Shown one piece after another: positions 26,571 to 35,047 of a stretch of DNA of 64,000 bases. The stretch is from the NCBI RefSeq assembly GCF_044647545.1, contig NZ_CP172818.1. One strand, 5' to 3'. Source of the stretch: Escherichia coli. GTDB lineage: Bacteria > Pseudomonadota > Gammaproteobacteria > Enterobacterales > Enterobacteriaceae. The notes beneath the pieces are model-generated. The model saw only the letters and a program-made list of their open reading frames with translations. It did not search any database and was not told where the DNA came from. The first letter of the stretch is position 1; each line of letters opens with the position of its first letter. The position numbers and the translations under genes were made by a program.

Positions 26571-26816
26571 AGCCTTAACCATTGTGTCGTGATAAACACG
26601 GCTCACCTTCTCTCCATTGCATGGCAGAGGGGTGAGTGTGTTAGCCATGAAATTCATGAACTCGGTTCGACCAGGGGCTTGCGCCCCGCAAGTCTTTAAT
26701 GCCTGTTTTGCTAACAAAATGCGGGCCTCAGTGCCTGCATTTGGCTCTATCTGCTGCAAACGTTTAGCGTCTTCCAGCAACAATGCGATCACATGCTTCA
26801 AATTCTGCTCATTCAT
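26508..26816 (-). CDS. ymfJ: prophage protein of unknown function
   Basis: 102-aa ORF downstream of a strong promoter-like element. Confidence 0.6.
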   Translation of the reverse strand: MNEQNLKHVIALLLEDAKRLQQIEPNAGTEARILLAKQALKTCGAQAPGRTEFMNFMANTLTPLPCNGEKVSRVYHDTMVKALRIELDGLRRKIVMNEIVTN

Positions 26817-26922
26817 CTATTCTCTCCACTGAAATCATCCGCTAACGAATCATCCCGGTCTTCGTACGTACCGGGCGGGCTACTTCGTGGGCGTCCTGCC
26901 TGTTTGTTGTTTCTCTTGGGTA

Positions 26923-26951
26923 CATTATGTATCTCAAAGGTACATTGTCAA
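26923..26951 (-). promoter_or_regulatory. sigma70-like promoter for ymfJ with overlapping GTACC operator half-sites
   Basis: Minus strand TTGACA, 17-nt spacer, ATAATG; tGTACC motifs overlap both hexamers. Confidence 0.5.
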
Positions 26952-26952
26952 G

Positions 26953-26978
26953 TATAAAAAAACCTGCCGAAGCAGGTT
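26953..26978 (-). terminator. rho-independent terminator of cohE
   Basis: Minus strand AACCTGC-ttcg-GCAGGTT followed by TTTTTTT, 13 nt after the cohE stop. Confidence 0.75.
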
Positions 26979-26990
26979 CATAAACATTGA

Positions 26991-27665
26991 TTAGGCTTTG
27001 ATTTTGTATCTTCTTGGTTTTCCTGAGAAAATCACAGTACCAATTATAGAGCAATTACCGTTGATCTTAATGTAAGGCTCAGGCCAGTTTGGGTTTAACG
27101 CTTTGAGATAACGCTGTGTCCCATCTTCTATCAACCTTTTGAAGGTGGTTTCACCTGTATCGTGCATCAATGCAATAACGTCGTCACCGTGGCAGGCAGG
27201 TACTTCAGGATCGACAAAAATCATGTCTCCCGGGCGGTACTCATCAATCATTGAATCACCTATTACCCGCAAGATATAAGTCATTTCCCCACAGGGTACA
27301 GGGCAGGGATACGTTTCTGCTGTGCTCAAATCAACCTCAGAATATCCAACTTCTTTCCATGCTCCGGCCTGTACCCATGATATGACAGGGACTAATGTGA
27401 TTTGTTTATTAGTGATTGAAACATCAGGTTTTTTTGTGATGTTCGTTGTCTGGTGTTCTTGATCGAGCCATCCTACAGGCAGGTCGAAACATTTTTCGAT
27501 GTGTCGTGCCATGCTGTCACCGATATTTTTAGTAGCACCATCTCCCATAAACCTGCTGGTCTGGGTTGGCTCGCGATCAATCATAGTGGCAAAGGAAGAA
27601 TTCCCGCCAACACCATCTCTCAGTTTTCTGGCGTTAGACCGCCGGATGTCATGGATTGTTTTCAT
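26991..27665 (-). CDS. cohE: CI-like prophage repressor (HTH plus LexA-type S24 peptidase domain)
   Basis: 224-aa ORF; C-terminal VIGDSMIDEYRPGDMIFVDPE self-cleavage domain; divergent from cro-like gene. Confidence 0.85.
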   Translation of the reverse strand: MKTIHDIRRSNARKLRDGVGGNSSFATMIDREPTQTSRFMGDGATKNIGDSMARHIEKCFDLPVGWLDQEHQTTNITKKPDVSITNKQITLVPVISWVQAGAWKEVGYSEVDLSTAETYPCPVPCGEMTYILRVIGDSMIDEYRPGDMIFVDPEVPACHGDDVIALMHDTGETTFKRLIEDGTQRYLKALNPNWPEPYIKINGNCSIIGTVIFSGKPRRYKIKA

Positions 27666-27680
27666 AACGAAATTAAAACC

Positions 27681-27701
27681 CTTGTACCGTTAAGGTACAA
27701 G
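27681..27701. promoter_or_regulatory. operator palindrome CTTGTACC-gttaa-GGTACAAG between cohE and croE
   Basis: Perfect 8-bp inverted repeat with 5-bp spacer; related half-sites ATGTACACC/GGTACAT at 27731..27750. Confidence 0.6.
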
Positions 27702-27705
27702 TATC

Positions 27706-27734
27706 TTGAAGGTTCATTTCAATCATGTAATATG
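27706..27734 (+). promoter_or_regulatory. candidate croE promoter
   Basis: TTGAAG, 16-17 nt spacer, TAATAT, then GGAGG SD at 27741..27745. Confidence 0.4.
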
Positions 27735-27755
27735 TACACCGGAGGTACATATTGT

Positions 27756-27956
27756 ATGAAAGCGTATTGGGACTCTTTAACCAAAGAACAGCAGGGCGAG
27801 TTGGCCGGAAAAGTTGGCTCAACACCTGGCTACTTACGGCTGGTTTTCAATGGCTATAAAAAAGCCAGTTTTGTGCTGGCTAAAAAACTTGAGCAATACA
27901 CATCAGGTGCAATTACGAAATCTGACTTAAGACCGGATATCTATCCGAAAGATTAG
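27756..27956 (+). CDS. croE: Cro-like regulator
   Basis: ATG 27756 (MKAYWDSLTKEQQ) gives 66 aa; GGAGG 11 nt upstream; divergent from cohE. Confidence 0.75.
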   Translation: MKAYWDSLTKEQQGELAGKVGSTPGYLRLVFNGYKKASFVLAKKLEQYTSGAITKSDLRPDIYPKD

Positions 27957-27987
27957 CAGAACACTTTCAATTTTTAACCACAGAACG

Positions 27988-28554
27988 ATGAGGCTAATCG
28001 TGGGTAAGCATCACTGGAAAATAGAAAAACAGCCTGAGTGGTACGTGAAAGCTGTCAGAAAAACTATCGCGGCGTTGCCGAGTGGTTACGCTGAAGCGGC
28101 TGACTGGCTCGATGTAACAGAAAACGCTTTATTCAACCGCCTTCGTGCAGATGGCGATCAGATTTTCCCGCTGGGATGGGCAATGGTTTTACAGCGTGCT
28201 GGTGGCACTCACTTCATTGCTGATGCTGTGGCGCAGTCTGCAAATGGCGTCTTTGTGTCTCTTCCTGACGTCGAGGATGTGGACAACGCCGATATTAACC
28301 AGCGTCTGCTGGAAGTCATTGAACAGATCGGCAGTTATTCAAAACAGATTCGTTCAGCAATCGAAGACGGTGTAGTGGAACCGCATGAGAAGACAGCAAT
28401 TAACGACGAGCTGTATCTCTCAATTTCGAAGCTGCAGGAGCATGCAGCACTTGTCTACAAAATTTTTTGCATTTCAGAAAGTAACGCCCGCGAGTGTGCA
28501 GCTCCGGGCGTCGTGGCGTCGATTGCTTCTGGTTGTGGAGAAACTAACGCATGA
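27988..28554 (+). CDS. ymfL: prophage regulatory protein (CII-like family)
   Basis: 188-aa ORF immediately downstream of croE, early-region position. Confidence 0.6.
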
Positions 28555-28898: not shown

Positions 28899-30266
28899 AT
28901 GAGCACTAAATTAACCGGCTATGTATGGGATGGTTGCGCTGCATCAGGCATGAAGTTATCCAGCGTGGCAATTATGGCCCGCCTGGCTGATTTCAGTAAT
29001 GACGAAGGTGTGTGCTGGCCATCAATTGAAACCATTGCCCGTCAGATTGGCGCGGGGATGAGTACCGTCAGAACGGCTATCGCACGGCTGGAAGCAGAAG
29101 GCTGGTTAACGCGTAAGGCGCGTCGCCAGGGTGATGGTTCATCACCCCACTGTGCGGTGGTGGATGAATATCACGAGCACGCCACCGATGCGCTTTATAC
29201 CACGATGCTTACCGGGATGGGGGCGCGACGTCAGCCACTGATGTGGGCCATCACCACCGCCGGGTACAACATTGAGGGGCCGTGCTACGACAAGCGGCGG
29301 GAAGTTATCGAGATGCTCAACGGTTCGGTACCCAACGATGAACTGTTCGGGATCATCTATACCGTTGACGAAGGCGATGACTGGACCGACCCGCAGGTGC
29401 TGGAAAAAGCCAACCCGAATATTGGCGTGTCGGTTTATCGCGAATTTTTGTTAAGTCAGCAGCAGCGTGCGAAAAATAACGCCCGTCTGGCAAACGTCTT
29501 TAAAACAAAACACCTCAATATCTGGGTGTCGGCGCGTTCGGCGTATTTCAACCTGGTGAGCTGGCAGAGCTGCGAGGATAAATCACTGACCCTTGAGCAG
29601 TTCGAGGGGCAGCCGTGCATTCTGGCCTTTGACCTGGCGCGTAAGCTGGATATGAACAGCATGGCGCGACTTTATACCCGCGAGATTGACGGTAAAACGC
29701 ATTACTACAGTGTGGCCCCGCGTTTCTGGGTACCGTATGACACGGTGTACAGCGTCGAGAAAAATGAAGATCGCCGGACAGCCGAACGCTTTCAGAAATG
29801 GGTGGAAATGGGCGTTCTGACTGTTACCGCTGGTGCGGAGGTGGATTATCGCTACATCCTCGAGGAGGCCAAAGCGGCGAACAAAATCAGCCCGGTCAGT
29901 GAGTCACCCATCGACCCCTTCGGGGCGACCGGGCTGTCGCATGACCTTGCTGATGAAGACCTGAACCCCATCACCATCATTCAGAACTACACCAACATGT
30001 CCGATCCGATGAAAGAGCTGGAAGCGGCGATTGAATCGGGGCGCTTTCATCATGACGGCAATCCCATCATGACCTGGTGTATCGGCAACGTGGTCGGCAA
30101 AACCATTCCGGGTAACGATGATGTGGTGAAGCCTGTCAAGGAGCAGGCGGAAAACAAAATCGATGGTGCGGTTGCACTGATTATGGCGATTGGCAGAGCA
30201 ATGCTGTACGAGAAAGAAGACACGCTGTCTGACCACATTGAGTCCTATGGGATCCGCTCGCTTTAA
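28899..30266 (+). CDS. oweE: fusion ORF: replication-initiator-like winged-helix N-terminus joined to terminase large-subunit C-terminal region
   Basis: 455-aa ORF; N-terminal roughly 90 aa resemble phage replication initiators, the remainder resembles a terminase large subunit C-terminal domain. Confidence 0.65.
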
Positions 30267-30277
30267 CTGAGGTAATT

Positions 30278-30445
30278 ATGATCATGCTGATTCTCCGCCT
30301 CTGGTGGGCGGCGGTGCTTTTGCTGGCGTATGGTGCCGCTCATTTATCCCCCGGGGGTTTTGTTCCCGGGGCGTTGTGCCTGTTCTGGTCGTTGCTGGTG
30401 GCGCGAATCTGTTCGACACAGTCGTCTGTCGGCGGAGGTAAATAG
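30278..30445 (+). CDS. ymfR: small hydrophobic membrane peptide (55 aa)
   Basis: ATG 30278 to TAG 30445, below the ORF-track cut-off; two hydrophobic stretches ([33 protein letters not shown]). Confidence 0.4.
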
Positions 30446-30651
30446 TGTTCTTTTCGGGATTATTTCAACGAAAAAGCGACGCACCGGTGACCACGCCAGC
30501 AGAGCTGGCGGATGCCATCGGGTTGTCCTACGACACCTATACCGGAAAGCAGATCAGCAGCCAGCGGGCCATGCGACTGACGGCGGTTTTTTCCTGTGTC
30601 AGGGTGCTGGCAGAGTCGGTCGGGATGTTGCCTGCAATCTGTATCACCTGA
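30445..30651 (+). pseudogene. beeE: portal protein N-terminal fragment
   Basis: 68-aa ORF with portal-like N-terminus; downstream region has no continuous frame. Confidence 0.45.
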
Positions 30652-32842: not shown

Positions 32843-33319
32843 ATGAAAATATACTGTTGCTTAAATACCGTTGGTTTTTTTATGGATGGCTGTGGCGTCA
32901 TTCCGCCAGATTCTAAAGAAATAACGGCAGAACACTGGCAGTCATTATTAAAATCTCAAGCTGAAGGAGGCGTGATCGATTTTTCTGTTTTTCCTCCTTC
33001 TATTAAAGAGGTTATCCGTACTCATGATGATGAAGTCGCAGATGCGAACTTTCAAAAGCAGATGCTTATCTCTGATGCAACTGATTTTATCAATAGCAGA
33101 CAGTGGCAGGGTAAGGCTGCATTGGGAAGACTTAAAGAAGATGAGCTGAAACAATCTGATTTGTGGGCTGGATTATCTGGACGCACTGGCGCTGGTCGAT
33201 ACCGCCAGTGCGCCGGATCTGAATGGCCTACGCCTCCGGCAGTTCAGGCCAGTAAATATCCGGTACAGTGCTGGTATCCGTTGCCATCACCGCGTCAATG
33301 TAATCCAGCACGGCGTTAA
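32843..33319 (+). CDS. tfaP: tail fibre assembly protein
   Basis: ATG 32843 (MKIYCC) 2 nt after stfP; WPTPP motif near the C-terminus; the frame stays open to 33319 (158 aa) and overlaps convergent tfaE, so the true stop is uncertain. Confidence 0.55.
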   Translation: MKIYCCLNTVGFFMDGCGVIPPDSKEITAEHWQSLLKSQAEGGVIDFSVFPPSIKEVIRTHDDEVADANFQKQMLISDATDFINSRQWQGKAALGRLKEDELKQSDLWAGLSGRTGAGRYRQCAGSEWPTPPAVQASKYPVQCWYPLPSPRQCNPARR

Positions 33320-33830
33320 GTCGGGTGTTTTCTGTCTGCGTCAGCTTCCTCCCGGCCTGCAATTTCAGTTGAATCAGACTAATTGAAGCCATTGCAGTAT
33401 CAATCAGTGACTGGCGCTGTGCTTCTGCCGCTTCTATTGCGGCACCGTATTGTGCCTCGGTATCGGTTACCCATTTCTCACCATCCCATTTATCGTATGG
33501 TGTTAACGGAGCGATAGTGGTCATATTTTCAGGGTAATCCCCTGGCGCTGTGATTTCTTTTGGTTCTCCCGTTTCGGTGCTATAAACAATTTCACCGCGA
33601 TGGTCTGGCACATATTTCCACGAGTTCAAATCCGTTGAGCGGCAAATTGCATAACCCGTTTTATGTGTACCAGGTGCATCTAAACAAGAACATGCCGGGA
33701 TACCGACACCGACAGCAAGATATTCGGTTGATGTTGAGATATATTCCTGTGTCCCATTATCATAGTTATAAACGGTAATATCCCCTGCCTTTACCGCGAT
33801 CAGCGCATCATTTAATACAGCTCCACCCAT
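33228..33830 (-). CDS. tfaE: tail fibre assembly protein (alternate orientation)
   Basis: 200-aa ORF ending in the canonical Tfa motif DIYWPELPEA. Confidence 0.75.
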   Translation of the reverse strand: MGGAVLNDALIAVKAGDITVYNYDNGTQEYISTSTEYLAVGVGIPACSCLDAPGTHKTGYAICRSTDLNSWKYVPDHRGEIVYSTETGEPKEITAPGDYPENMTTIAPLTPYDKWDGEKWVTDTEAQYGAAIEAAEAQRQSLIDTAMASISLIQLKLQAGRKLTQTENTRLNAVLDYIDAVMATDTSTVPDIYWPELPEA

Positions 33831-34390
33831 TATGCAGCCCTCACGATATAATTAAATGAAATATTTCGTGGACGTGATTCGTTACCGAATTTATCTGAAC
33901 CATCAGTATTTCTCGCTGAATATGTTTGGAGGATTGTCCCTGATGATGGATTCGCATTATATTCATTTGTTCCTGCTGGATAGTATGACATTGCACTATT
34001 GTCATCTTTGAAAACAGCAGACATCAATCCATCACCACCACTTCCGTAAGCAGTTGTAAGAAATGACGGTGATCGAAAGAAAGACTATTTTGTGCCGAAA
34101 GTAAGGGAACGACCAGAATCTACCCCGCGCCCATCATCCCAGCCACGAATAAACTCACCACGTAAATCAGGCAATTTATTTGTCGGGTAAGCCTTCGCCA
34201 GTTTTGGATATTCAACGGCAGAAAAAGCCGCACCGTTGCATTTCAGCCAGCCAGTAGGCGGTGTGGCTGAAGGCCACGGAACAGGCACACCAACGGGTAA
34301 TGCCGAACCTTCTCCCAAACCAAGGTTTATGAAAATGCGGAATAAGCGGCAAATGGCATCATTCCTGCTTTTGTCAGGGAGAGCTACCAT
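33830..34390 (-). pseudogene. stfE: alternate tail-fibre variable segment with in-frame TAG
   Basis: Two same-frame ORFs (34085..34390 and 33830..34027) separated by an amber codon at 34085..34087; N-terminal part carries a tail-collar-like motif (PVGVPVPWPSATPPTGWLKCNG...LPDLRGEFIRGWDDGRG). Confidence 0.6.
34308..34333 (-). other. Gin/Hin/Pin-type 26-bp recombination site (right, inverted)
   Basis: Minus strand TTTTCATAAACC-TT-GGTTTGGGAGAA; same TT core as the left site; adjacent to pin. Confidence 0.7.
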
Positions 34391-34941
34391 GCTTATTGGC
34401 TATGTATGTGTGTCAACAAATGACCGAAACACAAATCTACAGCGTAATGCGCTGAACTGTGCAGGATGCGACTCATTTTTGAAGACAAGATAAGCGGTAC
34501 AAAGTCTGAAAGGCCGGGACTGAAAAAACTGCTCAGGACATTATCGGCAGGTGACACGCTGGTGGTCTGGAAACTGGACCGGCTGGGGCGTAGTATGCGG
34601 CATCTGGTCATTCTGGTTGAGGAGTTGCGCGAACGTGGCGTTAATTTTCGCAGCCTAACAGATGCTATTGATATCAGCACATTCGATGGGGCGTTTTTCT
34701 TTATGTGATGGGGGCCTTGGCTGAAATTGAGCGTGAACTGATTGTTGAACGAACAAAAGCTGGACTGGAAACTGCTCGTGCACAGGGACGAATTGGTGGA
34801 CGTCGTCCCAAACTTACACCAGAACAATGGGCACAAGCTGGACGATTAATTGCAGCAGGAACTCCTCGCCAGAAGGTGGCGATTATCTATGATGTTGGTG
34901 TGTCAACTTTGTATAAGAGGTTTCCTGCAGGGGATAAATAA
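34389..34941 (+). pseudogene. pinE: serine invertase Pin disrupted by two frameshifts
   Basis: Resolvase/invertase sequence spread over three frames: 34389..34493 (MLIGYVCVSTNDRNTNLQRNALNCAGC), 34466..34708 (GDTLVVWKLDRLGRSM) and 34705..34941 (C-terminal HTH); total span 553 bp is two bases short of a 555-bp intact frame. Confidence 0.7.
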
Positions 34942-35047
34942 AGTTAAAGACACTTTGTGTACAAAAGAAAGTAAAACAACAGCAACTTGTTGCAATTTTA
35001 TCAATAAAAGTAGTATTGTCGTGAAAAATTGATTAAAGATTAATATT

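Follow-up and report, generated by a model that had tools for sequence, protein, structure and literature searches.

The analysed window, a stretch of 64,000 nt from an Escherichia coli genome (contig NZ_CP172818.1), contains the e14 region of the chromosome (lolCDE ... icd / e14 / iraM ...); it is 97–97.7% identical to K-12 and has the same e14 architecture. Within this region, the window sequence and an open reading frame (ORF) scan gave an ORF of 55 codons on the plus strand, from ATG 30278–30280 to TAG 30443–30445. The chimeric ORF upstream (28899–30266) stops with TAA at 30264–30266, and the gap of 11 nt that separates it from the ATG contains the stretch GAGGT, which the alignment shows unchanged in K-12, in HS-01 and in the intact prophage of E89. 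At the other end, the TAG shares one base with GTG 30445, the start of an ORF representing a portal remnant. The features of this part of the window are as follows.

28899..30266, plus strand: oweE-type chimeric ORF in which an HTH N-terminus like that of replication initiator O is joined to the C-terminal part of a large terminase
30269..30273, plus strand: Shine–Dalgarno sequence GAGGT for ymfR, 4–5 nt before the ATG, read from the sequence
30278..30445, plus strand: ymfR, damaged allele, 55 codons against a family norm of 60
30278..30346, plus strand: first hydrophobic segment, residues 1–23, from hydropathy and additive insertion free energy
~30295 (1 nt), ~30309 (5 nt), ~30337 (2 nt), ~30354–30359 (4 nt) and ~30406–30415 (3 nt), plus strand: deletions in ymfR, from alignment to other alleles
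30356..30403, plus strand: second hydrophobic segment, residues 27–42, from hydropathy; weakened in the window allele
30434..30439, plus strand: portal-gene Shine–Dalgarno sequence GGAGGT within the last ymfR codons, from junction comparison over 12 loci
30445..30651, plus strand: first open piece of a portal-protein remnant (beeE-type), 68 codons, phrog_12

Both neighbours are remnants of a phage head module. In the chimeric ORF, Pfam placed PF13730 HTH_36 at residues 23–70 and the TerL domains PF03354 and PF20441 at residues 78–436, and PHROGs gave a concordant division, with phrog_11896/391 at residues 1–81 and the terminase family phrog_9 at residues 76–447; the terminase share corresponds to the C-terminal two-thirds of a large terminase. 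Downstream, the product is similar to phage portal proteins at their N-terminus (phrog_12, E 1.7e-10), and the portal homology extends to about 30850, interrupted by further 1-nt indels; RefSeq labels the equivalent piece as an incomplete phage portal protein. The phage in the window is thus defective, with its terminase fused to a replication gene and its portal truncated and fused to a baseplate gene. Since these head genes are fused or truncated, the gene between them would be a relic with nothing left to assist.

The sequence-only reading had described the ORF from ATG 30278 to TAG 30445, its stop abutting the start of the next ORF, as well as two hydrophobic stretches followed by a polar tail, and the window sequence and the hydropathy profile (residues ~1–23 and ~27–42, with the polar tail behind them) agree with it on these points. 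It had also called the ORF unlisted; this does not hold, as RefSeq annotates the homologous position in K-12 MG1655, HS-01 and E89 as "ymfR: protein YmfR", and the ORF escaped the list used for that reading only because it fell below the length threshold. The K-12 protein (b1150, WP_000605606.1) has 60 aa and stands in UniProt as "Uncharacterized protein YmfR". In the DNA alignment, the window allele and K-12 ymfR have the start codon, the Shine–Dalgarno sequence and the stop codon in common, and they also share the locus, the oweE-type chimera upstream, the portal remnant downstream and flanking DNA that is 95–97% identical. They differ in length, with 55 aa in the window against 60 aa in K-12, and in the window allele residues 7–13 and 22–30 are scrambled and residues 43–50 altered. 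Our results therefore indicate, with a probability of roughly 0.9, that the 55-codon ORF is the e14-type prophage gene ymfR, present here as a relic and as a damaged copy in a defective prophage. To this extent the ORF was already known: the defective prophage is a familiar one, and the gene is annotated in it.

Several other differences from K-12 were observed in the e14 region. The immunity and early region on the cohE–croE–ymfL side (26800–28400) is identical to K-12, whereas divergence is 2–3% in the remainder of e14 and in the flanking chromosome, a contrast that points to mosaicism or recent recombination. An in-frame 3-nt deletion (ATG) lies at 28483, near the 3′ end of a ymfL-type ORF (27988–28554). 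The tail-fibre assembly/invertible segment on the tfaE/stfE side (33200–33900) shows 24–33 mismatches per 200 nt against K-12, a divergence far above that of the rest of e14.

Length alone would not single this ORF out, since 79 ORFs of at least 30 aa occur in 7 kb and 55 codons is unremarkable among them; it rises above chance because of its homology to a large conserved family. Of 5426 complete E. coli genomes, 1342 carry the ymfR segment, and the segment is multi-copy in many E. coli genomes (median of 2 places per genome). A profile search of public proteins yielded 942 clusters at 90% identity and 412 at 50% identity; among the matches listed, almost all members are 45–90 aa long, and across the 412 clusters the length is conserved at 50–65 aa. 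Homologues occur in the phages ST64B, phiP27, SfI/II/IV, phiKO2, PY54 and Marinobacter AS1. The only family that the intact members matched was PHROG 502, "membrane protein" (E-values of 2.5e-28 for K-12 YmfR, 2.8e-18 for phiKO2 gp3 and 1.9e-17 for AS1 gp3), which includes phiP27 L37 ("putative integral membrane protein"), ST64B Sb3, the SfI/SfII membrane protein, phiKO2 gp3 and Marinobacter AS1 gp3; searches of Pfam, NCBIfam, PDB sequences and PADLOC gave no meaningful match. These phage copies reside in complete, functional head operons, in contrast to the window copy, which resides in a deletion remnant. The sub-threshold Pfam matches (DUF1206, RseC_MucC, DUF2244 and 8xMP) are other two-TM hairpins and were set aside, as they look compositional.

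The order terL, small ORF, portal was kept in 14/14 loci examined (the window, K-12, E89, ST64B Sb3, phiP27 L37, phiKO2 gp3, YeP1, KPC2phi6.3, Marinobacter AS1, KpLi5, PY54 and the metagenomic loci L013–L016). The window ymfR has the same position, as the TerL-derived ORF ends at 30266 and the portal remnant begins at 30445. At the four metagenomic loci, a PF04860 portal lies downstream in every case, and TerL lies upstream in both members whose upstream fragment was identifiable. The hosts of this arrangement include Yersinia (YeP1), Klebsiella (ST101-KPC2phi6.3 and KpLi5) and Marinobacter (phage AS1, gp3), and the linkage spans phages and prophages with contractile tails, with non-contractile tails and with a linear-plasmid form. 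In all 12 junctions inspected, the stop of the small ORF overlaps the portal start or lies no more than 4 nt away, and in most of them the last codons of the small ORF form the portal Shine–Dalgarno sequence, which accounts for the conserved C-terminal GG[E/K/D]. In the intact E89 prophage, the genes run from a P27-family small terminase through the large terminase, ymfR and the portal to an HK97-type prohead protease and the major capsid protein. In intact members of the family, the gene is an integral and translationally coupled part of an HK97-type packaging/head operon, between large terminase and portal.

The public annotation of the family is inconsistent, as its members are called "membrane protein", "hypothetical" or "head-tail joining protein W", or carry no annotation. 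Clear YmfR homologues between terminase and portal are unannotated in PY54 (locus L010, ~2297–2490) and SfIV (2300–2483), and YmfR homologues in ON470603, ON470584, ON470580 and PQ793804 are labelled "head-tail joining protein W". Lambda gpW resembles YmfR in its position in the order terminase, small gene, portal and in its similar length. Identity with gpW was nevertheless rejected, since BLASTP gave no alignment at E ≤ 100 against the gpW sequence used; YmfR is also hydrophobic (GRAVY +1.22), whereas this gpW sequence is hydrophilic (−0.49). The "W" label on YmfR homologues is probably a positional or pipeline mis-annotation.

Among 16 sequences that are 42–80% identical to K-12 YmfR, 13 residues are invariant (I5, G11, G14, L17, G21, W23, P27, G30, G35, C38, L39, W41 and S42), and the core GAWL-x-PPAG motif is kept in far more distant homologues. 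The dN/dS values range from 0.1 to 0.56 (distant pairs with unsaturated dS), and variability is highest at the third codon position (0.46/0.32/0.64 for the three positions). Judged from this substitution pattern, the family is under purifying selection. A different reading would regard the ORF as a chance frame or a spacer that is conserved for a DNA or RNA reason, namely the portal ribosome-binding site, and whose peptide has no function. The portal signal does explain the C-terminal GG[E/K/D], chance ORFs of like length are numerous, and a K-12 ymfR knockout had no phenotype; however, the invariant residues, the motif in distant homologues, the low dN/dS, the third-position excess and the steady length across 412 clusters are what a selected protein would leave, and an Rfam search at ymfR gave no match, which together make a functionless spacer extremely improbable. 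A non-coding element or a minus-strand ORF was likewise rejected, as Rfam gave no match and the substitutions follow the reading frame of the plus strand.

The intact protein is predicted to lie in the membrane. K-12 YmfR has two segments (residues ~1–24 and ~31–46) with favourable additive insertion energy, and an AF2 model of an intact homologue shows helices at residues 2–25 and 27–56 with a break at YPPAG (pLDDT 69). Distant homologues begin with MKR or MR, and all have R/K after helix 2; by the positive-inside rule, the basic N-terminus and the basic residues behind helix 2 suggest that both ends are cytoplasmic. The YmfR family is thus predicted to form a two-helix inner-membrane hairpin with a tight YPPAG turn and both ends in the cytoplasm. 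Conservation is concentrated in the membrane helices, and the polar tail is the least conserved part.

The window allele departs from this pattern. Compared with K-12, HS-01 and E89, it carries five deletions between 30295 and 30415, with a net loss of 15 nt. The 1-nt and 5-nt deletions, and likewise the 2-nt and 4-nt deletions, together restore the frame, so that two short internal stretches are read out of frame; a translation check identified RLWWA as the +1 frame and LSPGG as the +2 frame of the intact allele. The 3-nt deletion turns WLVARYLDRT into LLVARICST. As a result, the invariant residues G11, G14 and W23 (3 of 13) are lost, the PPAG turn has become SPGG, and the core that defines intact members is broken. 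The match to PHROG 502 falls to 22 bits (E 1.6e-4, residues 13–46), compared with 98 bits and an E-value of 2.5e-28 for the K-12 allele. Transmembrane prediction, which had been proposed as a check, gave two segments in the K-12 allele, but the second is marginal in the window allele, with an additive Hessa energy of +1.5 kcal/mol against −0.8 kcal/mol in K-12. That the peptide is a frameshift-scrambled version of 55 aa of a 60-aa protein had been missed in the sequence-only reading.

The closest allele among the 5426 genomes is 91.8% identical over 241 nt, and the window allele is unique in that set. Its exact protein was found on a single NCBI contig among ~15 billion proteins, with a 53-aa version that PGAP names "hypothetical protein", and an exact 30-mer of the window-specific allele was absent from the GTDB species representatives. 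An open frame in spite of four frameshifting deletions might be taken for selection on the peptide; this idea was rejected, since random sets of deletions often stay open: the frame survived in 22% of random five-deletion sets and in 52% when the observed deletion sizes were used. On the evidence of the alignments, the window allele is a family member by descent, but a damaged one, and it is unlikely that the 55-residue peptide keeps the family function. A Shine–Dalgarno sequence and conservation in related prophages, the lack of which would have spoken against the ORF in the sequence-only reading, were both found, so that by descent the ORF counts as a gene.

The damage extends beyond ymfR and raises the question of whether the prophage has decayed or the assembly is at fault. 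Against HS-01, which holds the closest allele, the segment 30200–30922 contains about 10 indels and a few indel-adjacent changes, with zero independent substitutions, whereas its flanks contain ~3% substitutions and zero indels. Five of the indels fall in ymfR, and 1-nt events at 30630, 30675, 30691, 30769 and 30817 fall in the portal remnant. One of the changes makes a perfect palindrome, CCCCCGGGGG, at 30348–30357. A cluster of indels free of substitutions suggests either that assembly or polishing went wrong locally or that there was an unusual burst of mutation. We lean slightly towards the former, that is, the strain may well carry a normal 60-codon ymfR, and the indels in ymfR and the portal remnant may be errors made when a repeated prophage segment was assembled or polished. 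Besides the opposite patterns in the segment and its flanks, 9 of the 10 events are deletions, several of them at short homopolymers, the segment is often multi-copy (median of 2 places per genome), and the allele is a singleton among ~15 billion proteins and 5426 genomes. Nevertheless, the housekeeping genes of the window are free of such indels, so errors do not affect the assembly as a whole; the terminase part (29125–30266), which is just as repeated, is clean; and genuine decay is expected in a defective prophage. On balance, the indel-only cluster in an often multi-copy segment resembles a repeat left unpolished or wrongly polished more than it resembles ordinary divergence. The cluster in ymfR and the portal remnant calls for caution before the 55-aa peptide is treated as real, but the identity of the gene as ymfR is the same whether the indels are artefact or decay. 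Elsewhere in the prophage, the region of pinE (184 aa in K-12) at 34390–34943 has no intact ORF, since 1-nt indels split it into pieces of ~80 and ~78 aa; its best public match is just 94% identical, which favours neither artefact nor decay.

No promoter-like site adjoining the ymfR ORF was found in the window sequence. The deletion behind the oweE-type fusion places what is left of the terminase, along with ymfR and the remnants that follow it, after the early-right genes, so that ymfR could be transcribed by read-through from the early-right operon when e14 is derepressed. In K-12, the ymfR transcript was up (log2FC 4.5) together with ymfL, ymfM, ymfQ and other e14 genes in an LP-600 experiment that also induced SOS (PMC10012262). 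Given the intact Shine–Dalgarno sequence and ATG, a hydrophobic peptide of 55 residues would probably still be made from the window allele if it were transcribed. Replacement of ymfR in MG1655 gave no phenotype (PMC9145139), a result that is uninformative on function because e14 cannot build heads.

The sequence-only reading had proposed a holin-like or membrane-active peptide left over from a lost lysis/packaging region. The prediction of a two-helix membrane protein upholds its membrane part, and the gene does come from a packaging/head module; the lysis part does not hold. Class II holins and pinholins, such as S21, are small proteins with two TM helices and a basic cytoplasmic C-terminal tail, and YmfR resembles them in its size, its two predicted TM helices and its charged, basic C-terminal tail. 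It also belongs to a late operon, and small residues conserved in both helices, G11, G14, G21, G30 and G35, could mediate the helix packing or oligomerisation by which such a peptide would permeabilise the inner membrane. However, no sequence relationship of YmfR to these proteins was detected: no holin family was matched at E ≤ 1 in Pfam (16 members) or among the PHROG matches. The MIM double start is not conserved either, as homologues start with MILMIL, MFLIIL or V/MLITIL, and the gene lies beside an endolysin in none of the 14 loci examined. In E89, ymfR stays between terL and the portal while a separate lysis cassette, with a lambda-family holin, a GH24 endolysin and a lysis/spanin gene, lies 4–5 kb upstream; the idea of a lysis leftover is therefore wrong, and a holin-like role for the family is very unlikely.

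A host-directed role could also be considered: as a "moron", the gene would serve superinfection exclusion or manipulate the host at the membrane in some other way, and would have no part in head assembly. The category of PHROG 502 is "moron, auxiliary metabolic gene and host takeover", exclusion is a frequent role of small membrane proteins from prophages, and the conservation lies in the membrane helices rather than in the cytoplasmic tail. Nevertheless, the gene lacks its own promoter and terminator and sits inside a late structural operon, with translational coupling to both neighbours. It matches no defence model (PADLOC), and it has been inherited with the terL–portal pair in prophages of the myovirus, siphovirus and linear-plasmid types, even in Marinobacter, so that such a role appears improbable.

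The strict linkage and coupling to terL and portal across phage types argue that the gene belongs to the packaging/head module. By analogy, intact YmfR could possibly be a membrane accessory to portal, prohead or packaging functions, rather than a protein for lysis or for the host, although we hold this role only tentatively. More specifically, and as a speculative proposal, the hairpin of YmfR and its PHROG 502 relatives, coupled to the portal, might act at the inner membrane to tether or nucleate the assembly of the portal/prohead, or the packaging complex, and so be a functional counterpart of T4 gp40; the e14 copy would then be a fossil of such a system. In T4, the portal protein gp20 assembles on the inner membrane with the phage protein gp40 and the host YidC (PMC4493910). 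Gp40 is thus phage-encoded help for portal assembly at the inner membrane, as the position of YmfR and its coupling to the portal would suggest for YmfR; the likeness is one of function alone, and homology is not claimed. For portals of the HK97 type, we know of no assembly at the membrane. HK97 itself is not known to have such a gene between terminase and portal, so that YmfR could not be a universal requirement of HK97-type heads. Moreover, the tail, which would face the cytoplasmic portal or terminase, is the least conserved part, which argues against a specific contact mediated by it. A literature search, for ymfR or for small membrane proteins encoded between the terminase and portal genes, turned up no functional work on any family member.

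The window copy is itself of little import, being a damaged copy of an annotated gene. The family to which it belongs is widespread and strongly conserved, a predicted two-helix protein with a fixed place between terminase and portal in many temperate phages, within Enterobacterales and outside it.
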